A stretch of DNA of 64,000 nucleotides from Trueperaceae bacterium. GTDB taxonomy: Bacteria > Deinococcota > Deinococci > Deinococcales > Trueperaceae. Where the stretch lies: the NCBI GenBank assembly GCA_040905465.1, contig JBBDRK010000069.1, forward strand, positions 14,532 to 78,531. Reading direction: 5' to 3'. Shown here piece by piece: positions 6,427-37,003 of the stretch (position 1 is the first letter of the stretch; every line of letters begins with the position of its first letter). The position numbers were made by a program, and so were the translations under genes. The notes under the pieces were generated by a model. It had not been told where the DNA came from. It saw nothing but the letters and a program-made list of their open reading frames with translations, and made no database searches.

Positions 6427-7086
6427 ATGTCGGCTGTCATCCTCGTGGTCGAGGACGAGCCCGCGGTGCGGGAATTGGTCACGTTCCACCTCGAGCGCGG
6501 CGGGTTCACGGTTCGCGCGGCCGAGGATGCCGAGCAGGCCTGGCCGCTGCTCGCCGACAGCGACCTGCTGGTTCTGGACCGCATGCTGCCCGGCGCATCG
6601 GGCGAAGAGCTGCTGCGTCGCCTGCGCCGGGCCGACGGCTCGCGCCTGCCGGTGCTGATGCTGACTGCCCGCGGAACTGAACTCGACCGGGTCGAGGGGT
6701 TGGAAGCAGGCGCCGACGACTATCTGGTAAAGCCGTTCAGCGCCGCCGAGCTGGTGGCCAGGGTCCGGGCGCTGCTGCGCCGCACAGCGCCGGTGAGGTC
6801 ACACACGGTCGGCGAGCTCACTGTCGACGAGTCGAGCGGTACGGCGCGCCTGGCGGGCAATCCCGTTCCGCTCACCCGCCGTGAGTTCGAGCTGCTGGCC
6901 TTCCTCATCGCCAGCCGCGGCCGCATCTACAGCCGCCGTGAACTGCTCGACCGGGTTTGGGGCGAGGAGTTCCTGGGGACCGAGCGGACCGTCGACCAGC
7001 ATGTGGCCCAACTCCGCTCCCGTCTGGGAAACGAGTTGATCGAGACCGTGCGCGGGCGGGGATACCGGTTGGCCGGTGGCGAGTAG
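6427..7086 (+). CDS. phoB: OmpR/PhoB-family response regulator (PhoB-like)
   Basis: Receiver domain plus winged helix (ERTVDQHVAQLR, ETVRGRGY); SD GGAGGAG; divergent from phoU. Confidence 0.8.
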   Translation: MSAVILVVEDEPAVRELVTFHLERGGFTVRAAEDAEQAWPLLADSDLLVLDRMLPGASGEELLRRLRRADGSRLPVLMLTARGTELDRVEGLEAGADDYLVKPFSAAELVARVRALLRRTAPVRSHTVGELTVDESSGTARLAGNPVPLTRREFELLAFLIASRGRIYSRRELLDRVWGEEFLGTERTVDQHVAQLRSRLGNELIETVRGRGYRLAGGE

Positions 7087-26151: not shown

Positions 26152-26901
26152 ATGGTCGACCTCTGCCTGATCGTTCCCCATCCCGATGACGAGGTCTTCG
26201 GAACCGGTGGGCTCATCCGCCGCATGACGCAGCACGGCAAGCGCGTCGCAACCGTCACCCTCACTCGAGGCGGCGCCGGCCGAACCCTCGACCTGTGCAG
26301 CCGCGAGGAGCTCCCGGAGCGGCGCGAAGAGGAGTTGGTCCGGTCGCTGGCAACGCTGGGCGTGCCTCGCGAAGACGCATACGTGTTCGACTACCCCGAC
26401 TTCGTCACCGCAAGCGATCGGGGCATGGATCCGCGAGCCGGGCTGCAGGGCGCCGACCGCGACGAGATCGAGGCCCGCCTCGTTCGGCTGCTCGACGAGT
26501 TGCGCCCGCGCGTGGTCGTGACGTTCCCGCCCAACGGCGGCAACGGACATCCCGACCACGTGGTCACCAACGCGCTGGTGCTGGCCGCCCTCGAGAGGAT
26601 GGCGGAGGCGCCGCAGGAGCTCTACTACTTCGCCAGCGAACGCCCGTACGAAGGTCCGGTTCCGCCGGGTTTCCTGAACAACGACGAGATCGCCCGGCTC
26701 CACCTGCCGCCCACCCACTACCTGGAGCTCGACCGGGAGATAGAAGCCAAGCTCAGAGCAATGGGGCAGCACGAAACCCAGGCGCGCAGCGTTCTGATGT
26801 TCATGCGACGCTTCGCCCGGCGCCTGCTGACTGAGAGCTTCCACCGGGCAGTGCCGGCGCCCACCAGTGAGTCGGTCGGCGACACGGTCTACTGGCTGTG
26901 A
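26152..26901 (+). CDS. PIG-L/LmbE-family deacetylase
   Basis: PHPDDE, GHPDH and HETQ motifs; ATG 6 nt after TAACAT. Confidence 0.88.
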   Translation: MVDLCLIVPHPDDEVFGTGGLIRRMTQHGKRVATVTLTRGGAGRTLDLCSREELPERREEELVRSLATLGVPREDAYVFDYPDFVTASDRGMDPRAGLQGADRDEIEARLVRLLDELRPRVVVTFPPNGGNGHPDHVVTNALVLAALERMAEAPQELYYFASERPYEGPVPPGFLNNDEIARLHLPPTHYLELDREIEAKLRAMGQHETQARSVLMFMRRFARRLLTESFHRAVPAPTSESVGDTVYWL

Positions 26902-27025
26902 GCCTCCGGCACTGAACTTCGCCCGGCGGCGGCCCGAAGATACGGAACCGCGGTGCCTCGCGGCCGTTCCCACCGGTGGTCGGACGGCCGAGCCGTCCTG
27001 CAGAGCGCGTGGTACTTTGGTGGCG

Positions 27026-28432
27026 ATGTTAGCCAGTGGTGACCTGAACGAGCTCGAGCCGGTGCGCCAGGCCCTTGCCCAGGGTAGGTACGACGCCGCT
27101 TTCGCGCTGCTCGAGAGCGCAGCCCGCAGGCCGCGCCGGCGAAGGACCAAGGCGCTCTACCGCCTGCATCTCGCCGGCCTCTATGCGCTCTACGGTGACG
27201 ACGGTCTGGAAGACGGCTCGCTGGCGCTGCGTTCCGCGGTCGAGACAGATCCAGGGGTGACCGAACTGGCTCTTTACCGCGCGCTGTTCTGGGAGTTCGG
27301 CGCGCTCGGGGGAGAGACGGCCCGGGCCGTCAAGCGCGGGGTGAAGCCGGTGCGGGAAGACGGTGACGCCGAGGCGCTCTATCACGCAGCTAACGCGCTC
27401 TACACGGCTGGGGCGCTCGAAGAGGCGTTGTCGTACCTCGCCCAGCTCGACGAAGGGGCGCTGCCCGGTTACCTGGGCTGGCGCCGTTGGTCGCTCATCG
27501 GCCTCGCCGAGGAGCAGCTCGGCCGTCTGGAGGACGCAGCGCAAGCGTTCGAACGATCGGTCGAACTCTCCTCCGGGGCCGATCAGCAACTGGAGCGGCT
27601 GGCACTCGCCGGCTGCCTGCTGGAGTTGCACCGTGGCGACGACACACTGGCGGTCTTGGCCGGGGTCGACAAGGATCTGCTCGAGTCGGACGACGACCTG
27701 ATGCACATGCGATATCTCGCAGGCAGGGCCGAGTACGTTCGAGGGAATCCGAATCGCGCCCTCGTCCTGCTGGAGGAAGCGCGCGCCGTGGGGAGCGGCG
27801 AAGGCGAAGAGCAGTATGCCTTGCTGGTCGCCGAGGGTCAGGTCATGAGCAGCCTCGGGCGCTTCCCGGAGGCCGCCGAAAGGTTCGAGCTGGCGGTCGA
27901 TTTCGCGGCCGAGGATCAGATCTCCTACGCGCTGCACGAGTGGGCGCTGGCGCTGATGGAGACGGGCGAACTCGGTTCCGCCGAGGAGCGGCTCGATGAG
28001 GTGGCGGCGGACCTGGCATACCCCTACCGGGCGGACGCCCTGGCCGATCTGGCCGAGGTGCTTCTTAAGCTCGGCAGTTTCGACAGGGCAGAGGTAGTGG
28101 CGCAGCAGGCCCTCGAACTGGGGGCGACCGCAACCGCCTGTTTCACACTGGGGTCGATCGCTTACGAATATTTCCGGCTCGATGAGGCGGTCACCTGGTT
28201 CGAACGCGCGGCCAGCGCCAGCGAGCCGGGTGACTCTGTCTGGGTGCTTTCTCAGCAATTGCTGGCGGACGTGTTCGCCCAGAAGGGGCCGGAGGTCGCC
28301 GAGCGCCTGGTGACCCACGCGCGGGCGGCTCTCGCCTATACCGATCCCGCCAACGAGTGGTACCTGCCCCTCAAGGGCTACCTGGAGACCGCGGAACGCC
28401 AGCTCGGTGGGCACCGGCGGGTGCTCAACTAG
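27026..28432 (+). CDS. Tetratricopeptide-repeat protein
   Basis: Multiple TPR-like helical repeats; ATG 7 nt after TACTTT. Confidence 0.8.
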   Translation: MLASGDLNELEPVRQALAQGRYDAAFALLESAARRPRRRRTKALYRLHLAGLYALYGDDGLEDGSLALRSAVETDPGVTELALYRALFWEFGALGGETARAVKRGVKPVREDGDAEALYHAANALYTAGALEEALSYLAQLDEGALPGYLGWRRWSLIGLAEEQLGRLEDAAQAFERSVELSSGADQQLERLALAGCLLELHRGDDTLAVLAGVDKDLLESDDDLMHMRYLAGRAEYVRGNPNRALVLLEEARAVGSGEGEEQYALLVAEGQVMSSLGRFPEAAERFELAVDFAAEDQISYALHEWALALMETGELGSAEERLDEVAADLAYPYRADALADLAEVLLKLGSFDRAEVVAQQALELGATATACFTLGSIAYEYFRLDEAVTWFERAASASEPGDSVWVLSQQLLADVFAQKGPEVAERLVTHARAALAYTDPANEWYLPLKGYLETAERQLGGHRRVLN

Positions 28433-28456: not shown

Positions 28457-30016
28457 ATGGAAGGCCTGCTGATTGCCGAGGAGTTGCGGCAGCTCCGACC
28501 GCTGCTGCCCAGCCGCCGTCTCAGCTGGCGGTTTCCCGACGCGCACACCTTCGTGCTGCCGCTCGCCACGGGCAGCCTGTGGTTGTTCAACCGGCCGCCT
28601 AATCCGCGGCTCGAGTTGCGCTACGACGCTCCCTCGCCGGGTCGAAGCCACTCGGGATTCCAGGACCTGCTGGCGTCGCGCGCGGTCGGGGACCTCGCCG
28701 AAGCTCGGCAACGGAAACTCGACCGGGTCCTGACTCTGGAGTTCGCCGCCGGCGGCGGCTTCGTCGAGACGCCAGGCGTGTTTCTGGTGGCCGAGCTTAC
28801 CGGACGGAACTGCAATCTGATACTTCTCGACAGCAACGAGACCGTGCTCGGCGCCGCCAGGGAGGTCAGATCCGACATCAACCGATTTCGGGAGGTAGTA
28901 GCCGGACGCCCCTACACGCCGCCACCGCCGTATGAAAAGCTCGATCCGCGCACCGCCGGCCGGGAGACGCTGCATGAAGCGCTGTCCGGGGCGCCCCTGC
29001 GTTCCTGGCGAAAGATAGTCGACGGGGTGGGGCCGGAACTGACCAGGGCGCTGGCCGCCGCTACCGAGCTGCCTGACACGCGTGCTCTGGACGGGAGGGA
29101 GCTGAAGCGGGCTCTCGATGTCCTCGAGGGCCTGGTCGAAGCACCTAGCCGGGTCGTGCGAGACGCACTCCAGCGGCCAGACGTGGCCACGTTGCGGCTG
29201 CGTGAGAGACGTCAGGCGGTTCTGGAGCGCCTGAAGAACGAACTACAGCGCGAGGTTACCTTGCTGGAGAAACGTCTGGGGGACCTGACGAAGGCACGAG
29301 AGGCTGCCGCCGAGGCCCATGAGCTGCGCGGCCACGGCGATCTCTTGCTGGCGCTGGCGAATCGGGTGCCGGAAGGTGCGGGGAGCGTCATGCTCACCGA
29401 CTTCTCGGGACGCCCGGTTCGGTTGACCCTCGATCCGAGCATAGGTGCCGCCGCCAACGCCCAGGCGTTTTATGAGCGGGCGCGCAAGCGCGAAGCGCGC
29501 GCTCGCCAGGCCGACCTGCGCGAGCCGGAATTGAGGGAGCGAACCGAGGAGCTGTCCGACCTGTTGCGGAAGTTGCATGAGCGGACCGACGCGGAACTCG
29601 CCCAGTTGACCGAGCGATTCCTTCCCGAGGCCAAGGCCCAAGGCCGAAGCACCCCTGGCGCCCGCTTTCGGGGACCGCACGGTTTCACCGTCCTGGTCGG
29701 GCGCAGCGCTCGGGAGAACGACCAGATCACGTTCAAGTTGGCGCGCAGCCGCGATCTGTGGCTGCACGTTCAGGGCTTTCACGGCGCGCATGTGGTGATT
29801 CTGGCGGAGAACCGTGAGGTGCCGTTCGACACGGTTCTCTTCGCCGCAAGCCTGGCGGCCGGTCACTCCAAGGCGGCGGATTCGGACAACGTGCCGGTGG
29901 ACTACACCCTCCGAAAGAACGTCTGGAAGGTGAAGGGACAGAACGCCGGAGCCGTTCATTTCACCCGGCACAAGACGGTTTACGTGACGCCGAGCCGGAA
30001 TCCACCCGTCGCGTAG
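28457..30016 (+). CDS. rqcH: NFACT/Rqc2-family ribosome quality-control protein
   Basis: LDRVL, ELTGRNCNLIL, coiled coil, GRSARENDQIT, WLHVQGFHGAHV and VDYT motifs. Confidence 0.88.
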   Translation: MEGLLIAEELRQLRPLLPSRRLSWRFPDAHTFVLPLATGSLWLFNRPPNPRLELRYDAPSPGRSHSGFQDLLASRAVGDLAEARQRKLDRVLTLEFAAGGGFVETPGVFLVAELTGRNCNLILLDSNETVLGAAREVRSDINRFREVVAGRPYTPPPPYEKLDPRTAGRETLHEALSGAPLRSWRKIVDGVGPELTRALAAATELPDTRALDGRELKRALDVLEGLVEAPSRVVRDALQRPDVATLRLRERRQAVLERLKNELQREVTLLEKRLGDLTKAREAAAEAHELRGHGDLLLALANRVPEGAGSVMLTDFSGRPVRLTLDPSIGAAANAQAFYERARKREARARQADLREPELRERTEELSDLLRKLHERTDAELAQLTERFLPEAKAQGRSTPGARFRGPHGFTVLVGRSARENDQITFKLARSRDLWLHVQGFHGAHVVILAENREVPFDTVLFAASLAAGHSKAADSDNVPVDYTLRKNVWKVKGQNAGAVHFTRHKTVYVTPSRNPPVA

Positions 30017-30073: not shown

Positions 30074-31273
30074 GTGCCCAAACGCTCCCTCGTCCTCTCG
30101 GGCTCGTCGCTCGCGGCGCTGCTGGTAGCTGCCCACGCCGTCAACGACTCCTTCAGCGGAATGCTGGCCGCCCTGCTGCCTACGTTCCAGGCCCGCTTCG
30201 GGGCCAGCGAAACCGTGCTGGCAGCTCTGGTAGCCACACTGTCGTTCTCCGCATCGGTCACGCAGCCCGTTTTCGGCGCCCTGGCGGATCGTCTCGGCCG
30301 GCGGCTGGTGGGTGCGCTGGGCGTGGTGGCTTCGTCGGCTCTGCTGAGCCTGATGGGCGTGACCGATTCGCTGTGGCTGCTGTTCGGGCTGCTGCTCATC
30401 GGTGGCCTCGGCTCGGCCGCTTTCCACCCCTCGGGTACGAGCATGGCGCGTGCGGCGGCAACTACCAGCCCGGGCATCAAGAGCGGCGTGGCGGTCGGAA
30501 TATTCAGTGCCGGCGGTACTGCCGGAATGGCGTTCGGTCCACTCCTCATCGGATTTTTCGTCATCAACGACATCCTGCAATTTACTCCCTGGTTGATGGT
30601 GCCCGGGCTCGTGCTGGGGGTTCTGCTGTATGTACTGGTGCCCGTCCAGGAGCGGGCAGCGCGCGCCAACCGTCCCAAGCTATTCGATGCGGCGCTGTTT
30701 GCGGGTCCGGTGGGGGTGCTCTGCCTGGCGGGGATCTTGCGGTCCATTGCCTGGGTAACGCTCCTCAACGGCGCCCCCCTGTGGCTGGTACAGGAGCGGG
30801 GTCTCATGGCCTCCAGCCCCACTATCTTCTGGACGCTCGCCGTCTTCTCGTTCTTCGGCGGTCTGGGCGGCATAGTCGGCGGAATGCTTGAGCGGAGGCT
30901 GGGCCGCGAGGCCCTCATCGCCGGTAGCATGCTGCTGGCGCTGGTACCGCTCTATGCGCTTTTCGTCCTGCCCCCCGGCAGCGTGGCTTACTTCACCGTC
31001 GTCGCCCTCGCCGGCGCGCTCGTCAACGGGGGCCTTCCGCTGATGGTGGTCAGTGCCCAGGATCTCGCGCCCAACGCGATGGGAACCGCGTCGGGTATGC
31101 TCATGGGCCTCACATGGGGCACGGCCGGGCTGATCTACATCCTCATCGGGAGCCTTCAGGAGGCGATAGGGGTCGGCCCGGCCATGGCGCTGGCCTTTTC
31201 TACCCTCGTGCCCGGCGCCTTCCTGGCGTTGCGGGTGCTGCGTGGCAATGTCGAGGCGCTCACGGCCGACTGA
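30074..31273 (+). CDS. MFS transporter (Fsr-like)
   Basis: AHAVND, QPVFGALADRLGRR and GSAAFHP motifs; about 12 TM helices. Confidence 0.88.
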   Translation: MPKRSLVLSGSSLAALLVAAHAVNDSFSGMLAALLPTFQARFGASETVLAALVATLSFSASVTQPVFGALADRLGRRLVGALGVVASSALLSLMGVTDSLWLLFGLLLIGGLGSAAFHPSGTSMARAAATTSPGIKSGVAVGIFSAGGTAGMAFGPLLIGFFVINDILQFTPWLMVPGLVLGVLLYVLVPVQERAARANRPKLFDAALFAGPVGVLCLAGILRSIAWVTLLNGAPLWLVQERGLMASSPTIFWTLAVFSFFGGLGGIVGGMLERRLGREALIAGSMLLALVPLYALFVLPPGSVAYFTVVALAGALVNGGLPLMVVSAQDLAPNAMGTASGMLMGLTWGTAGLIYILIGSLQEAIGVGPAMALAFSTLVPGAFLALRVLRGNVEALTAD

Positions 31274-31297
31274 CCAGTCTGAACGGCCGCCGATCAG

Positions 31298-31332
31298 CGT
31301 TCAGGGTGCGTTCGGGCCCCCCACTCTAGGGT
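31298..31332 (+). promoter_or_regulatory. Candidate activator-dependent promoter GTTCAG-N5-GTTCGG-N11-TAGGGT
   Basis: 11-bp-periodic direct repeat with the same geometry as 34428-34462. Confidence 0.55.
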
Positions 31333-31339
31333 GTATGCC

Positions 31340-31867
31340 ATGGAGGTCACCGTGCCCTTGAGACTCGAAGGTACAGCGTCGATGCTGGCCGAAAATTACA
31401 GCCGTCAGGTGTCCATCCTGCTCGTTGAGGATAACGAGGACGACGTGCTGCTCACGCTGCGCGCGTTCAAGAAGAACACCGTCGAGCTCGAAGAGGTCGT
31501 GGTGGTGCGTGACGGAGCCGACGCGCTGGACTACCTGTTCACGCGTGGCCCGTACGAACAGCGCAACCAGGCGATCATGCCCAAACTCATCCTTCTCGAC
31601 ATAAAACTTCCCAAACTGAGCGGCCTGGAACTGCTCCGAGCGGTCCGCAGCGATCCGCGTACCCGCCTCATTCCGGTGGTGATGCTTACCTCGTCCGCCG
31701 CCGAGCAGGACCTGATGTCGAGCTACGGAGCAGGCGCCAACGGTTATATTCAGAAGCCGGTGAACACTCGGCAGTTCGAGGAGACCGTGCAGCAGGTAGT
31801 CAACTACTGGCTGGGGGTCAACCGGGCTCCAGGCAGTATCGGCGAAAGCCTGCACGCCGGCTGCTGA
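31340..31867 (+). CDS. Single-domain response regulator (receiver only)
   Basis: ILLVEDNEDD, LILLDIKLPKLSG, VMLTSS and YIQKP motifs. ATG 31340 is 7 nt after TAGGGT (alternative start 31382). Confidence 0.88.
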   Translation: MEVTVPLRLEGTASMLAENYSRQVSILLVEDNEDDVLLTLRAFKKNTVELEEVVVVRDGADALDYLFTRGPYEQRNQAIMPKLILLDIKLPKLSGLELLRAVRSDPRTRLIPVVMLTSSAAEQDLMSSYGAGANGYIQKPVNTRQFEETVQQVVNYWLGVNRAPGSIGESLHAGC

Positions 31868-31997
31868 CACGGGAAGCCCGGTTGGTACGACTGGCTGGTA
31901 GGTATCGGGATTATTACCTAACCGGTACTGCAAGACTCGCCCGGGGGGTACAGGGACACGGCGACCTGATTCGTCGGGCCTGCGATACTATGGGCCG

Positions 31998-34403
31998 ATG
32001 GTCCTCAAGACGCTCGGCCAGTTCTCACTGGACGGTAGCGGCTTCCGGCGCATAAAGCCCCTGTTGCTCGTCGCCTATCTGACCCTGGAGGGTGCCAAGT
32101 CGCGGCGCTATCTCGCCGAGATCTTCTGGCCCGGGGCCAGCGACGCCATGAACAGCCTGTCGGTAGCCCTTTCGCAGCTGCGGCGAGGCGCTCCCGGGAG
32201 CACCGACGCCGATGAGGCGCGCGCCTGGAGTTTGATTGGCTGCGACGCACTGGAGTTGCGTGCCGCCTTCGCCGGAGGCAAGCTCGAGGAGGTGGCGGAG
32301 CTTTACGAAGGACAGTTCCTGGAAGGCCTGGAGCTCGAACTCGGCGAGGAGTTGGAGGAGTGGGTCTACGTCACGCGCGAATCGCTGGCGGCGACCGCTC
32401 GGGAGGCGTTGCTGCGGCTGGCCGAGATCAAAGCGGGCCAGGGCCGTTTCGACGTGGCCGGCCAACTGGCCGAGCGGGCGTACTACCTGGCGGGGGCGGC
32501 GCCTCCCGAGCCCGAGGAGTTCGTCCGTTTCCAGGTGCTGTTGACTGCAGGCAAGAGTCCGGCCGCGGCCGAGTTGCGGCGCGAGGCGGAGGCCTACGAC
32601 ATCACCCTCTCGATTTCGGCGGACGAGGCGCGAGCACGCATAGGTCAGGTGCTCGTGGGCCGGGAGCGCGAACGCGAACAGCTCGCCGGACTGGCCGAGC
32701 GGGAGTGGGCGTGGCTGCGCGGCGGCAGGGGGATGGGCAAGACGGCGTTGCTGAGGCAGATCCACGGAACCTACCTGCCCGCGCGTAGCGGCCTGCCATA
32801 CGCGACTCTCGAGCCGCTCATCGGAGACAGGCTGGGCCAGAGTGAGACGGTTCTGCTCAAGCAGCTCGCGGGAATGACCGGTACCTGGCTGGTAGACGAT
32901 TGGGAGCAGACCGACCAGGAGAGCCGTCTGCTGCTGGCGCGGCTGCGCTCGCTGCGTCCGCCGGTTCGGGTCGTGATCGCCTCGACCGAGGCGCCGAGCC
33001 TGTCCGTGGACACCGAAATCGAGCTGGGACCGCTGGCGGACGGAGCGCTCGGCGCGTTTCCGGACGCGTGGGAACAGACCGGCGGCCTGCCTGAGCTCGT
33101 GGGCGCCTTTCTGCGCGAGGAGCCGCTGGACGCGGCGCTCGAGCGTCGGTTGGCAAGGCTCAACGACGCGTCGCGCGAAGTCTACCTGGCGCTGGCGCTG
33201 CTGGAAGAGCCCGACCCCGCGCTGGTACGTCGCGCTCTCGGGCTCTCCAGCGCCGCCATCGGCGGAGCGCTCGCCGAGTTGCTGCCCGCGGGATTGATAG
33301 AGCCCTCCGGAGCAGTCCGGGCGCGCCAGTCCGCGCTGACTCATCTCGAGTCGCATCCCACGCTGCTCGGACCGCTGTCGCTGGCCCTGGCGCGCCAGAA
33401 GAGCGGTATCGAGGCGTTCCCTCTGTACCGGCGGGCACGACCCTTCTGGGAGACCAGCGACCTTCCGGCAATAACCGAGTCCTACCTGGCTTGGGGCGAG
33501 GAGCTGCTGCGCCGTGGCTTCGCGAGACGCTCGCTTGACGTCATGGCCGAAGCACCGCCCTCGCAGGCGGCCAACCTGCAGTGGGCGCGGGCGCTCGAGC
33601 AGGCAGGTCAGTACAAGGAGGCGCTCGAAAAGCTCTCCTCGTTGGAGGACAGCACTTTGGTGTCGGCGCTCAAGAGCGCCCTTTACATGCGGTTGGGACA
33701 GCCCGACGAGGCTCACGCGGCCGCCCAGCAAGGACTCGAGGGCGATACCGAAGCGCGCGCCGAAGCGCTCAACACATTGGGCGTGCTGGCTCTTCATCAG
33801 CAGGACTATCCGGCGGCGGAAAGCCTCACGCGCCGGGCGGCGGCCCTGTGGAAGACGCTCGGCAACCAGATGCGGTGGGTGTCGGCGCTGAATAATCTGG
33901 GAATCGCCAGAACCCTGGCAGGTATACCGGGCGAGAACGCCTTTGACGAAGCCCTCAGCGCTGCCGGCGAGAGCGCATTGCTACAGGCCAGGACCCTGCT
34001 GAACGTGGGCTGGACTCGGGAGCGTGAAGAGCGCTTGGAACTAGCCGAAGAAGCCTACCACGAGGCGGCGCGGCTTGCGGCCGAAGCCGGCGTGATCGAG
34101 GTGGCCGCGTGGGCCTGGAACAATCTGGGCGTCCTGCACCACAAGCTGGAACAGGTCGAGCGCGCCAGGGAAGCGTACGAACAGGCGTTGGCGTTGGCCC
34201 AACGCGCCGGCGAGCAGCGGATTCTGGGCATGGTCATGGCGAATCTGGCCGAGCTGACCGAGGATCGCGAGGCCTGGGAGGAGGCGCTGCGCATCCTGGA
34301 GAAGTCCGGCCACGGGACCACGGCTGACAATTTCAGGCGATCGCTGGGTGAAGGTCATGTATTTCAGACGGACGACGAAAGCAAGGAGAACCGTATAGGC
34401 TAG
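31998..34403 (+). CDS. SARP-type wHTH/BTAD + STAND-like P-loop + TPR transcriptional regulator
   Basis: SRRYLAEIFWP...SLSVALSQLRR (wHTH), LYEGQFLEG...EEWV (BTAD), GGRGMGKT, WLVDD, TGGLP, C-terminal TPRs. Confidence 0.82.
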   Translation: MVLKTLGQFSLDGSGFRRIKPLLLVAYLTLEGAKSRRYLAEIFWPGASDAMNSLSVALSQLRRGAPGSTDADEARAWSLIGCDALELRAAFAGGKLEEVAELYEGQFLEGLELELGEELEEWVYVTRESLAATAREALLRLAEIKAGQGRFDVAGQLAERAYYLAGAAPPEPEEFVRFQVLLTAGKSPAAAELRREAEAYDITLSISADEARARIGQVLVGREREREQLAGLAEREWAWLRGGRGMGKTALLRQIHGTYLPARSGLPYATLEPLIGDRLGQSETVLLKQLAGMTGTWLVDDWEQTDQESRLLLARLRSLRPPVRVVIASTEAPSLSVDTEIELGPLADGALGAFPDAWEQTGGLPELVGAFLREEPLDAALERRLARLNDASREVYLALALLEEPDPALVRRALGLSSAAIGGALAELLPAGLIEPSGAVRARQSALTHLESHPTLLGPLSLALARQKSGIEAFPLYRRARPFWETSDLPAITESYLAWGEELLRRGFARRSLDVMAEAPPSQAANLQWARALEQAGQYKEALEKLSSLEDSTLVSALKSALYMRLGQPDEAHAAAQQGLEGDTEARAEALNTLGVLALHQQDYPAAESLTRRAAALWKTLGNQMRWVSALNNLGIARTLAGIPGENAFDEALSAAGESALLQARTLLNVGWTREREERLELAEEAYHEAARLAAEAGVIEVAAWAWNNLGVLHHKLEQVERAREAYEQALALAQRAGEQRILGMVMANLAELTEDREAWEEALRILEKSGHGTTADNFRRSLGEGHVFQTDDESKENRIG

Positions 34404-34427
34404 GCGAACGGTGGGTAGCACGGCCCC

Positions 34428-34462
34428 CGTTCAGGGCTGGTTCAGAGGGGGGAGACTAACCT
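34428..34462 (+). promoter_or_regulatory. Candidate activator-dependent promoter GTTCAG-N5-GTTCAG-N11-TAACCT
   Basis: 11-bp-periodic direct repeat with the same geometry as 31298-31332. Confidence 0.55.
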
Positions 34463-34520
34463 CGGATTGTGGCCTGGACTAATATAAAAAATACAAGTGC
34501 ACTCATAGGGGAGGTCAGCG

Positions 34521-35999
34521 ATGTCCATGCATAACGTTTTGAGAGCCCTCGCGCTGTCATCACTCGCGTTCCTGCTGGCGGCTTGCGGATCCACGACTGA
34601 GCCGTCGGAGTTCTCGGCGCTGTCGACCACCGCGAAGCTTTCGCCCGAGTGGGCCGAGCGGGGAGACATCGTCACCGTGAAGCTCTCGGGCGCCAACACC
34701 AAGAGCGTCGAAGTGACGGTGGCTGCGATAACTGCGAAGGTTTCGATCATCAACGGAAGCGAATTCTCATTCGTCGTGCCGGAGGAGGCACCCGCGGGCA
34801 ATCAGCCCGTGACGATCACCCTTTCGGCACAGACCCTTCTTACCGATATCGATGTCCTCGGTGACGACGTAGTGGCCGGTGAATTCACGCTGGTGGTGGC
34901 TCCCGGGACCACGGTCCCGGATCTCACGAACGTTCTCGACGGGCTCGACTTCCTCGTGCTGGAAGGTCCGCGGCCACTGGGTGCCCAGTCGGGCACCTGC
35001 AGCGGTGAGTTGGTCCGCATCCAGGTTCTCGGTCTGGACACGGGCGAGGCTCTCGATGACCTCAAGAGCCGCGTCGACGGGGAAACCGTCTGGCACAGCG
35101 ACCCGCAGAGCGGGTACTCGACGGGCGCGATCAATCATCTCGGGGCAATCGGTGCGGACGACTCGCGCCTTCGCGGCCTCACTGGCGCCGGAACTCTGAT
35201 CGCCGTTATCGACACCGGCGTGTCCGATCACGACGAGCTGGGCAGCCGCCGGCAACTCGCCGACGGGTACGACTTCATCGACGAGGGGACGCCGGCCGAC
35301 GACTCGTTCGGCGGTAACGGCCACGGCACACCGATAGCCGTACTGGCCGCGGGCACCAGCTCCGGCGTAGCACCGCAGGCGCAGGTCCTGCCGGTCCGGG
35401 TCTGCGGCTCCGACGGTACGTGCTATACCAGCGACGTGTTACTCGGTGTCTGCCATGCGCTGGCGACCTCGGAGGGCCGTAGCGAGGGGATGGACGACCT
35501 GATCATCAACTTGAGCCTGGGTGGCGAGACCCCGGTAGAGTCGATCCGGTCGGCCCTGGAGTTCGCCCTGCAGAACGGCACGCTGATAGCCGCCGCCGGC
35601 GGCAACGAGCGCGAGCAGGGCTCGCCCCGGCACTACCCGGCAGCCTACGACTTGAAGGGCCTGCTGGCGGTTGCGGCCTTGCAGGCATCGTCACTCGGTG
35701 AGCTCGCAGGTGACTGGAAACCCGCCTCGTTCGGCACTCGCGGGGACTACCTCGACATAGCCGCCCCGGGCGTGGATCTCACCAGCGGCAACTCCGCGGG
35801 AGGCTACAGCTCCGGCTACAGCGGGACCTCCTTCGCCACCGGCTTGGCGTCGGGCGCCCTGGCCGTCTGGCGTGAAGCGAACGACAGCATGAGCGCAGCT
35901 GACGTAGAGGCCGGCGTCAAGGCCGCCGCACGCCCGCTCGACTATTCCGAGAACGAAGTCGGCGCGGGAATGCTCGATCTCTCGGACGAGCCGAATTAG
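34521..35999 (+). CDS. Lipoprotein subtilisin-like (S8) serine peptidase with N-terminal Ig-like domain
   Basis: Lipobox LLAAC; triad VIDTG / GHGT / GTSFA; oxyanion AAGGN; SD GGGGAGG. Confidence 0.9.
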   Translation: MSMHNVLRALALSSLAFLLAACGSTTEPSEFSALSTTAKLSPEWAERGDIVTVKLSGANTKSVEVTVAAITAKVSIINGSEFSFVVPEEAPAGNQPVTITLSAQTLLTDIDVLGDDVVAGEFTLVVAPGTTVPDLTNVLDGLDFLVLEGPRPLGAQSGTCSGELVRIQVLGLDTGEALDDLKSRVDGETVWHSDPQSGYSTGAINHLGAIGADDSRLRGLTGAGTLIAVIDTGVSDHDELGSRRQLADGYDFIDEGTPADDSFGGNGHGTPIAVLAAGTSSGVAPQAQVLPVRVCGSDGTCYTSDVLLGVCHALATSEGRSEGMDDLIINLSLGGETPVESIRSALEFALQNGTLIAAAGGNEREQGSPRHYPAAYDLKGLLAVAALQASSLGELAGDWKPASFGTRGDYLDIAAPGVDLTSGNSAGGYSSGYSGTSFATGLASGALAVWREANDSMSAADVEAGVKAAARPLDYSENEVGAGMLDLSDEPN

Positions 36000-36020
36000 G
36001 TCGAGAACCACGATTGGAAA

Positions 36021-36054
36021 AGCGGGCAGGAGGCGCCAGAGCCTCCTGCCCGCT
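36021..36054. terminator. Bidirectional intrinsic terminator between the peptidase and fba
   Basis: 14-bp perfect stem AGCGGGCAGGAGGC / GCCTCCTGCCCGCT, flanked by GAAA and CCTTTC. Confidence 0.8.
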
Positions 36055-36082
36055 CCTTTCTCATCGCAGTCGCTCGGCAACC

Positions 36083-37003
36083 TCAGCCCTTGCCCGCGGA
36101 ACCGAACAGCGCGATCCGGTCGCTGACCAGCTCCTTCATCTGATCGCGAGCCGGGCCAAGGATCTTGCGCGGGTCGAACTCGGCCGGCTTGTCGCGCAGT
36201 ATCTCGCGGATGGCGGCGGTGAACCCCAACCGCAGGTCGGTATCGGTGTTGATCTTGGCTATGCCGTGCGAGACAGCCTTGCGCACGTCCTCCTCGTGGA
36301 TGCCCACAGCGCCCGCGAGCACTCCGCCGGCGGCGTTAAGCCGCTCGACCACCAGTGCGGGAACTCCGCTGGCGCCGTGCATCACCAGAGGATGGGGGAG
36401 ACGACGTGCTATCTCGGCGATCCTCTCGAGATCTACGAACGGCCGGGTCTTGCCCTTGTTCGGCCCGTGTGAGGTGCCTATCGCCACCGCCAGGTAGTCG
36501 GCACCGCTCTCAGCCATGAACCGCTCTGCCTCCTCGGGCTTGGTGAGGATGGCGTCCTCCTCGGCCACCACCACATGTTCCTCGACGCCGCCCAAGCGCC
36601 CGATCTCCGCTTCTACCGTGACCCCCACGGCGTGCGCGGCTTCCACCACCTTGCGAGTTTCAGCCACGTTCACCGCTTCGTCCTCATGCGACTTGTCGAT
36701 CATCACCGAGGTGAATCCCGATCGGATAGCGCGCATGCAGGATTCGAACGACGATCCGTGATCGAGGTGAATGGCCACCGGCACGCCGACCTCGCTGCCC
36801 ATGGTGCGCACGATGTCGACCAGTTGCTTGCCGCCGTACTTCAGGGCGCCCTCGGAGAGTGCCACGATGACGGGAGACCGAGAGTCCTCCGCCGCCTCCA
36901 GGATCGCCTGAGTGATCTCCATGTTGTTGGTGTTGAAGGCGCCCACGCCGTATCCGCCGTCGCGCGCCGCCGCGAGTATGTCGAGTCCGCTCACTAGTGC
37001 CAT
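36083..37003 (-). CDS. fba: Class II fructose-bisphosphate aldolase
   Basis: GAFN, HLDHG, GTSHG, LVMHGAS and KINTDTD motifs; ATG 6 nt after TATACT. Confidence 0.96.
   Translation of the reverse strand: MALVSGLDILAAARDGGYGVGAFNTNNMEITQAILEAAEDSRSPVIVALSEGALKYGGKQLVDIVRTMGSEVGVPVAIHLDHGSSFESCMRAIRSGFTSVMIDKSHEDEAVNVAETRKVVEAAHAVGVTVEAEIGRLGGVEEHVVVAEEDAILTKPEEAERFMAESGADYLAVAIGTSHGPNKGKTRPFVDLERIAEIARRLPHPLVMHGASGVPALVVERLNAAGGVLAGAVGIHEEDVRKAVSHGIAKINTDTDLRLGFTAAIREILRDKPAEFDPRKILGPARDQMKELVSDRIALFGSAGKG

Follow-up and report, generated by a model that had tools for sequence, protein, structure and literature searches.

To our knowledge, large SARP regulators have been studied almost only in Actinomycetota, as switches of antibiotic synthesis, and we know of no natural signal for AfsR. 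Here we describe a locus of a Trueperaceae bacterium (Deinococcota) at positions 31,298 to 35,999 of a 64,000-nucleotide stretch of contig JBBDRK010000069.1 (the window, whose numbering is used for all coordinates without prefix), in which the gene of an 801-amino-acid (aa) protein of probable AfsR-like architecture lies between two promoters that carry direct repeats, one in front of a lone receiver gene and the other in front of a subtilase gene.

AfsR of Streptomyces coelicolor has the same three-part architecture as that proposed here, SARP domain, NOD and tetratricopeptide repeats (TPR), and afsS presumably lies directly downstream of afsR. The afs operator consists of two 11-bp repeats at -40 to -19 that replace the -35 element in front of a weak -10, and the -35-like element of afsS, TTCAGC, shares TTCAG with the half-site found here (PMC10936776). 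The main target of AfsR, afsS, has been termed a 'small regulatory gene' (bioRxiv 10.64898/2026.09.02.748808). The structural likeness to the AfsR SARP fold is clear (Z 11.3–11.7), but identity within the SARP domain is about 17% and the domain described here is invisible to Pfam and to sequence profiles. AfsR is a protein of Actinomycetota, whereas the present module is found in Deinococcota, has as its predicted target the gene of an S8 lipoprotein, overlapped by a leaderless small open reading frame (ORF), and has no link to antibiotic gene clusters. EmbR of Mycobacterium tuberculosis is the best structural match to residues 1–215 of the 801-aa protein but bears an FHA domain where the latter has a predicted STAND ATPase and TPRs. 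The small SARPs ActII-ORF4, DnrI and RedD likewise use repeats with an 11-bp period, the 3' repeat standing at a fixed short distance from the -10 (PMC10936776); they lack a sensor module and regulate the antibiotic clusters in which their own genes lie. The PHO boxes of PhoB and PhoP, bound by head-to-tail winged-helix dimers, are also 11-bp direct repeats near the -35, but the regulator described here has no receiver and has predicted BTAD and ATPase parts and TPRs. Finally, RRNPP regulators (Rap, NprR, PlcR, PrgX) resemble it in joining a TPR sensor to a DNA-binding domain and in having a small ORF next to the regulator gene; they differ in their DNA-binding fold and in the absence of a STAND ATPase, and their peptides bear export signals, of which none was seen here.

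We consider it about 75% probable that the 801-aa protein activates transcription in the manner of AfsR and controls a small local regulon, in which SARP protomers on 11-bp repeats switch on the receiver and the protease. Two protomers would sit side by side on two 11-bp repeats (core GTTCAG) at about -40 to -19, in the place of a -35, and would help RNA polymerase to initiate at a weak -10. Two transcripts would be switched on in this way, a leaderless receiver mRNA and the mRNA of a surface-anchored S8 protease, while the regulator itself would be expressed from its own leaderless promoter, free of repeats. The ATPase and TPR part would hold the DNA-binding part inactive until a signal arrives.

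Repeat geometry and its conservation

The elements of the locus, in order along the window, are:

31299..31320, + strand: direct-repeat box of the receiver promoter, 22 bp (GTTCAGGGTGC GTTCGGGCCCC), read directly
31327..31332, + strand: -10-like hexamer TAGGGT of the receiver promoter, 11 nt past the second half-site
31340..31867, + strand: receiver-only response regulator, 175 aa (Pfam Response_reg, E 2e-17)
31986..31991, + strand: putative -10 of the regulator gene itself, TACTAT, within the genus-conserved block CTGCGATACTAT
31998..34403, + strand: ORF of the 801-aa regulator
Regulator residues 1–215: SARP domain (recognition helix 50–64), assigned by structure comparison
Regulator residues 242–249, 297–301 and 362–365: Walker A GGRGMGKT, LVDDW and GGLP motifs of the putative STAND NTPase
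Regulator residues about 480–790: TPR sensor, helical repeats in the model
34429..34450, + strand: direct-repeat box of the protease promoter, 22 bp (GTTCAGGGCTG GTTCAGAGGGG), read directly
34457..34462, + strand: -10-like hexamer TAACCT of the protease promoter
34521..35999, + strand: S8 subtilase lipoprotein, 492 aa (Pfam Peptidase_S8, E 6e-35)

Both boxes have a period of 11 bp. The half-sites are GTTCAG (31299-31304) and GTTCGG (31310-31315) on the receiver side and GTTCAG (34429-34434) and GTTCAG (34440-34445) on the protease side; the boxes share nine identical bases, CGTTCAGGG. At both sites the hexamer begins 28 nt after the first half-site and 17 nt after the start of the second, and the spacer between second half-site and hexamer is 11 nt. 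The repeat and hexamer positions, the period, the nine shared nucleotides and the 17-nt offset had been pointed out in a first-pass annotation of the sequence, and all of them could be read directly. The same annotation stated that a consensus -35 is missing. There is indeed none at either site, as the sequences 17 bp upstream of the hexamers, GGGTGC (receiver) and GGGCTG (protease), are not sigma-70-like and a consensus promoter scan of positions 31100-36200 returned no promoters, but the absence carries little weight in a phylum whose promoters generally do without one. In the protease hexamer the T, the A and the final T are invariant across the three genomes of the genus, and the inner bases vary.

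The pattern GTTCRG-N5-GTTCRG occurs twice in the window, where 0.04 matches are expected from shuffled sequences, and six times on both strands of the whole assembly (3.53 Mb, 65% G+C). The continuation N11-TANNNT follows only two of the six, those at 31299 and 34429, so that the scan proposed earlier for the full pattern returned two sites only, one on either side of the 801-aa gene. The pattern was drawn post hoc from these same two sites, and the chance figures overstate the case; more weight was therefore given to conservation in other genomes, which is the real test of the repeats and which they passed.

For this comparison 41 full-length orthologous loci with 4-kb flanks were collected from Trueperaceae, Thermaceae and Deinococcaceae. 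A strict search for GTTC-N7-GTTC in the first 12 loci found a repeat adjoining the regulator gene in seven, and in the full set a direct repeat with an 11-bp period stands just after the regulator gene in 36 of 41. The repeat is of the GTTCAG type in 22 loci (automatic rule, at most two mismatches, coding strand), lying close to the 3' end of the regulator gene (within about 60 nt) in 20 and about 1 kb further on in two. Fourteen of the remaining 19 carry a variant with the same period in the same place, re-found by pattern, with half-sites GGTCAG, AGTCAG, AGTTAG, ATTCAG/TTTCAG, [A/G]TAACG/TTAACG or GTTCAT/GTTAAG. In 33 of the 41 loci the regulator gene is followed downstream by an S8 gene, and lipoboxes are present in the orthologues. 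The receiver gene is adjacent in all three genomes of the window's genus and in none of 40 other orthologous loci; its promoter box is kept upstream of the gene in the two other genomes of the genus, G001 and G002, the only ones with receiver orthologues under the same promoter. The S8 protease is thus best read as the conserved target of the regulator and the lone receiver as a target in the window's genus only, and the earlier proposal that the regulator induces a surface protease and a receiver agrees with gene neighbourhood for the protease in 33 of 41 loci and for the receiver in this genus alone.

A weight matrix was built from 43 related sites selected for likeness to GTTCAG. In the genome it ranks the box at 34429 first (32.6 bits) and that at 31299 second (29.7 bits); the next site scores 24.2 bits and all others at most 17.0. 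At positions that played no part in the selection the 43 sites have C at -1 in 72% and G at +6 in 83%, and A at +29 and T at +33, i.e., hexamer positions 2 and 6, in 94% each. The hexamer begins with C in 30% of the sites, and the matrix as a whole describes a -10, [T/C]A...T, whose distance from the repeats is fixed. The third-best site of the genome, at C17:118775 (L125:2776-2815), reads GTTCAG-N5-GTTCAT-N11-TACCAT and is intergenic, followed by an 84-aa ORF that belongs to no family and by a DinB_2 gene. As a third target it is unconfirmed, and it is not kept before the orthologues in G001 and G002.

The first-pass annotation had itself named a way in which the first site could be trivial, as the 3' arm of a CTGAACG...CGTTCAG hairpin that ends the transcript of the upstream MFS transporter gene, in which case the second site would be due to chance or to the tail of the regulator gene. 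An 8-pair hairpin can indeed form at 31278-31305, and in many relatives the final codons of the regulator extend into the repeat. The hairpin is, however, no stabler than those of shuffled sequences (-17.3 versus -16.3 ± 2.7 kcal/mol, z -0.37), has no T tract, was not flagged by a terminator scan and is absent from G001 and G002, where a third direct repeat is found instead. A terminator at the first site was rejected on these grounds, and a repeat that is conserved with spacer and -10 in 36 of 41 loci is incompatible with chance, which makes a non-regulatory origin of the two sites extremely improbable. The third repeat of the relatives, CGTTC(G/A), stands 10 bp upstream of the receiver box (L042:7095-7135 in G001, L043:7000-7035 in G002). 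At about that position the window has the inverted copy CTGAACG (31279-31285).

The regulator and the half-sites

The fold of the 801-aa protein was examined on predicted structures, with a mean pLDDT (predicted local distance difference test) of 92.4 for the full-length model and 96.8 for the model of residues 1–215. The latter aligned (VIA-align) to EmbR with Z 11.9 and a root-mean-square deviation of 3.6 Å over 204 of 215 residues, and to the SARP domain of AfsR in transcription complexes with Z 11.7 and 11.3. The next unrelated chain (Z 8.9) covered the winged helix alone. Residues 1–80 also align to DNA-binding domains of the OmpR/PhoB type (DrrB, PhoP and SaeR, Z 7.1–8.9), while the alignment to EmbR and AfsR extends through residues 1–215, helical BTAD part included. 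Foldseek likewise gave the AfsR SARP domain as its best matches for this part (8k60_J, E 1e-4, TMq 0.66), and for the full model its top match was 6mfv_A, a STAND and TPR protein (E 6e-12). In Pfam the protein matches TPR_12 (E 2.3e-18), and TPR_1 and TPR_2 above their cut-offs; AAA_16 (E 3e-5) stays below its cut-off, NACHT reaches E 0.08 and PF00931 gave no match. The Walker A, LVDDW and GGLP motifs are conserved. Further candidates for its domains gave little: NCBIfam returned nothing meaningful, RapF is among the weak TPR matches (E 1.2e-3), Pfam found no Response_reg, unlike in OmpR/PhoB response regulators, and no GerE/LuxR output domain, and TPR_MalT scored 39.7 bits against a cut-off of 45 bits. 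The best reading of the model is an AfsR-like 'large SARP', in which the SARP domain is followed by a STAND ATPase as switch and by TPRs as sensor. With the matches to SARP and to STAND and TPR structures, the order of winged helix and BTAD, P-loop STAND and TPR that had been read from the letters alone holds at the level of the fold.

The closest relatives of the protein, with 71% identity, are found in Trueperaceae metagenome-assembled genomes, and full-length orthologues with 42–55% identity in Meiothermus, Calidithermus, Deinobacterium and Deinococcus. The homologues are mostly annotated as 'tetratricopeptide repeat protein' and a few as 'SARP family'. The literature searches made here turned up no description of this module in Deinococcota, in keeping with what had been supposed; the only Deinococcus SARP paper found deals with a receiver-SARP protein whose targets are given as unknown (PMC3564903). 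Recent surveys define AfsR-like proteins by Pfam tests (bioRxiv 10.64898/2026.09.02.748808). The present regulator fails these tests, which may explain why such proteins are not listed outside Actinomycetota.

The repeats themselves might be bound by another winged-helix protein, of the PhoB/OmpR type or a paralogous SARP, the neighbouring regulator being incidental. At least 12 proteins encoded in the genome exceed the Pfam cut-off for Trans_reg_C, and the window contains one of these (at about 6856-7071). The regulator also has two paralogues whose N-terminal domains are 40–41% identical to its own, and in Streptomyces AfsR and PhoP have been reported on overlapping sequences (PMC10936776). 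The nearest OmpR-type regulator gene, that at about 6856-7071, is however 25 kb away, the adjacent 175-aa receiver has no output or DNA-binding domain in Pfam, and the repeats track the orthologues of the 801-aa gene in three families.

Additional evidence comes from natural variation. When half-sites and recognition helices (model residues 50–64) were compared at 39 loci, helices with Q60 (16 loci) went with GTTCAG, TTTCAG or GTTCAT-type sites and in no case with a GTCAG half-site. Helices with [S/T]59-R60 went with [G/A]GTCAG at 8 of 8 loci, those with K55 and H59-[R/K]60 with TAACG at 4 of 4, those with H60 with GTTAAG at 2 of 2, and those with A55 and K60 with GTTCAT at 8 of 8. Where a second site stands beside the same regulator gene it has the same half-site variant. 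At L105, for example, AGTTAG/AGTTAG is found on both sides of the regulator gene and this type is found in none of 16 other loci, and the two sites of a locus agree also in L090, L087, L055, L074, L050, L064 and L079. Changes in the half-site thus track the recognition helix of the 801-aa protein, and both sites of a locus share them. As the repeats follow the gene and co-vary with its helix, as the OmpR-type gene is distant and as the receiver lacks a DNA-binding domain, it is very probably the 801-aa protein that binds, and the repeats, with their adjacency in three families and their fixed distance to the -10, behave as its own operators, as had been anticipated. Binding by another winged-helix protein appears very unlikely.

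The two paralogues (L002 and L003, C49:247237-249135), of 995 and 1492 aa, are arranged head to head. Their intergenic region contains CGTTCT-N5-CGTTCC, also with an 11-bp period, and no -10 at the matching distance.

Promoter use and mode of control

In Deinococcus deserti 60% of mRNAs are reported to be leaderless, with a -10 directly upstream of 94% of transcript starts and no conserved -35, and some of the leadered mRNAs begin with the start codon of a leader peptide (PMC4007540). At the present locus the ATG of the receiver lies 7 nt after its -10, and the receiver mRNA is probably leaderless. The transcript starts that had been expected at 31340 and 34469 coincide with start codons 6–7 nt after the -10, as for leaderless transcripts. 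In other genera the protease promoters have an ATG 5–9 nt after the -10 at 20 of 25 sites, and also at L085, L078 and L077. If +1 is placed at that ATG, the -10 occupies -12 to -7 and the 22-bp box -40 to -19. With this placement the box would stand exactly where the afs box of AfsR is reported to stand, with its two 11-bp repeats and SARP protomers side by side (PMC10936776).

For the regulator gene we infer a leaderless promoter of its own, which the first-pass annotation had missed. Its ATG lies 6 nt after TACTAT, the repeat box is absent, and an alignment of the three genomes of the genus shows an invariant CTG.GATA.TAT followed, after 6 nt, by ATG or GTG, so that this repeat-free promoter would be conserved in the genus.

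A protein at -40 to -19 could equally act in the opposite sense. The same protein on the same repeats may be a repressor or a dual regulator that blocks RNA polymerase at promoters with only a -10 until a signal arrives. Promoters of this phylum work without a conserved -35 and might fire unaided (PMC4007540), and several sites have good -10s (TATACT, TATCTT, TACACT). Many other sites have poor ones (CAAACT, CAGGAT, AACCAT), the box position is identical to the activating position of AfsR, and the protein folds like SARP activators, down to the BTAD part through which AfsR touches RNA polymerase in its complexes (PMC10936776). Activation is therefore the likelier mode, given the shared position, the weak -10s and the activator fold, and repression or dual control is unlikely.

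Several observations weigh against a SARP-type activator acting through these repeats. First, the N-terminal domain is identified through structure comparison only. Pfam did not detect Trans_reg_C (PF00486) or BTAD (PF03704) in the N-terminal 241 aa even at E 10, the 801-aa gene was not among the matches of a genome-wide PF00486 search, and neither a profile of 28 N-terminal-domain sequences nor phmmer with the regulator found a SARP chain among PDB sequences; in precomputed annotation PF03704 appears, among the matches listed, for one (P0077) of 120 homologues. Second, no repeat was recognised in five of the 41 loci (L052, L068, L071, L075, L080), the 43 matrix sites were picked for likeness to GTTCAG, and the 14 variant repeats were initially recognised by visual inspection. 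Third, the half-site classes are clade-specific, with seven changes for seven classes on a protein tree built without the first 100 residues (38 rows, L081 being omitted for its interrupted frame), and the GGTCAG class could not be shown to have arisen independently, a single origin not being rejected (approximately unbiased test, p-AU 0.34). The independent events are thus few, and all of them point the same way. Fourth, since promoters in this phylum generally lack a -35 (PMC4007540), its absence here is no proof of dependence on an activator. The predicted target promoters do have the geometry of SARP-type promoters, 11-bp repeats with a fixed 11-nt spacer to the -10, in so far as geometry can be judged from sequence.

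The protease leader, second targets and implications

Between the protease promoter and the protease gene two further elements are found:

34469..34534, + strand: start of the protease leader, remnant small ORF with GTG start, 21 codons, holding most of the block GATTGTGGCCTGGACTAATAT
34508..34515, + strand: Shine-Dalgarno sequence GGGGAGGT of the protease gene, read directly

The three genomes of the genus differ hardly at all in the block GATTGTGGCCTGGACTAATAT (34463-34485) but do differ around it, and conservation in the genus is strong over the leader's first 21 bases although the small ORF is degenerate. In most loci the protease start codon follows the leader ATG by exactly 52 nt, with GGAGGT at +40 to +45. 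The 12 codons from the ATG to the Shine-Dalgarno sequence show a three-base periodicity in 13 aligned leaders, with a mean column entropy of 1.05, 1.05 and 1.63 at codon positions 1, 2 and 3 (permutation p 0.0002), and the encoded peptide begins MPxS, followed by ..L....EV, in which EV is encoded by the Shine-Dalgarno sequence itself. The frame is open for 57–99 codons in 22 of 25 loci, for 50 in G001 and for 21 in the window and L053; the third frame is open for a median of 16 codons. A first control, the stop density further down the gene, overstated the long frame and was replaced by synonymous recoding of the protease, in which the frame stayed open in 0.3–8% of trials in low-G+C lineages and in 15–76% elsewhere (Fisher p 3.5e-4 over seven lineages, 0.003–0.76 per locus). 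Selection for the long frame is by this control moderately supported. Within the overlap, reading of the sequences of L050 and L036 shows the protease frame to be better conserved than that of the small ORF. Gene finders hardly ever call the ORF (five proteins in a collection of 5.8 billion proteins). Five of the small ORFs compared with Pfam matched no family, and no export signal was seen. In most other genera the protease leader appears to open with a small ORF, translated but not annotated, whose frame runs into the protease gene; the first-pass annotation had missed this leaderless ORF.

Within the genus of the window this ORF appears to be decaying, its start being GTG in the window's own genome (G000) and in G001, and GTA in G002. 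At the start position L087:6402 has ACG and L043:10129 has GTA, and the following codons still resemble those of relatives, which may reflect either ORF decay or a non-standard start.

The genes behind a second promoter with repeats, which often points away from the regulator gene, differ from clade to clade. It precedes the receiver in the window's genus, a LuxR-type response regulator in G008, and in other clades lipoproteins with beta-helix, cytolysin-like, Big_5, astacin and PKD, PKD/Big_7 or NHL domains, or small proteins without family. In two Trueperaceae loci, L050 (938-1747, - strand) and L064 (3076-3918, - strand), the second target is a small SARP (270–281 aa, BTAD E 2e-13 and 3e-8), which suggests a cascade from large to small SARP. 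The theme of the second targets is surface or secreted proteins and further regulators. At L037 (1632-3425, - strand; G017, Trueperaceae) the second promoter with repeats precedes the gene of a 597-aa lipoprotein whose Thiol_cytolysin domain (Pfam E 2.7e-18), cholesterol-dependent-cytolysin-like, represents a family unexpected in Deinococcota.

The subtilase of the window has a lipobox LAAC with Cys22 and the triad Asp231, His268 and Ser437. The locus is bordered by the following features:

30074-31273, + strand: MFS transporter gene
36021..36054, + strand: terminator-like hairpin closing the protease transcript, a 14-pair stem (11 G-C) followed by a T-rich tail
36083-37003, opposite strand: class-II aldolase gene

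Two genes upstream, the gene at 28457-30016 (+ strand) encodes an RqcH-like protein of 519 aa (ribosome quality control), in which NFACT_N and NFACT-R domains are found, and that at 26867-28432 a 521-aa TPR protein.

The locus would extend a switch of known type to a new phylum; its regulon is compact and legible in the sequence, and the overlapping small ORF is an unusual addition. The natural variation among its relatives may amount to a specificity code, Q60 with GTTCAG, R60 with GGTCAG and K55/H59 with TAACG, and the second targets, which vary by clade, comprise lipoproteins (astacin, cytolysin-like, beta-helix, Ig-like) or more regulators. The module is carried by the cultivable Meiothermus taiwanensis, Calidithermus and Deinococcus alpinitundrae, in which the prediction is directly testable. 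It is tempting to speculate further, as a rather doubtful extension, that the conserved output across Deinococcota is a dual-coding leaderless transcript, in which a small protein of 57–99 aa with a variable, sometimes Cys-rich tail overlaps the subtilase gene out of frame, and that this small protein is either a counterpart of AfsS or a precursor that is cut by the subtilase and sensed by the TPR part, closing a feedback loop. The overlapping leaderless small ORF may then be a further case of hidden dual coding and, if this is true, the AfsR-AfsS type of module would be older and wider than Actinomycetota, and tied to surface proteolysis rather than to antibiotics.

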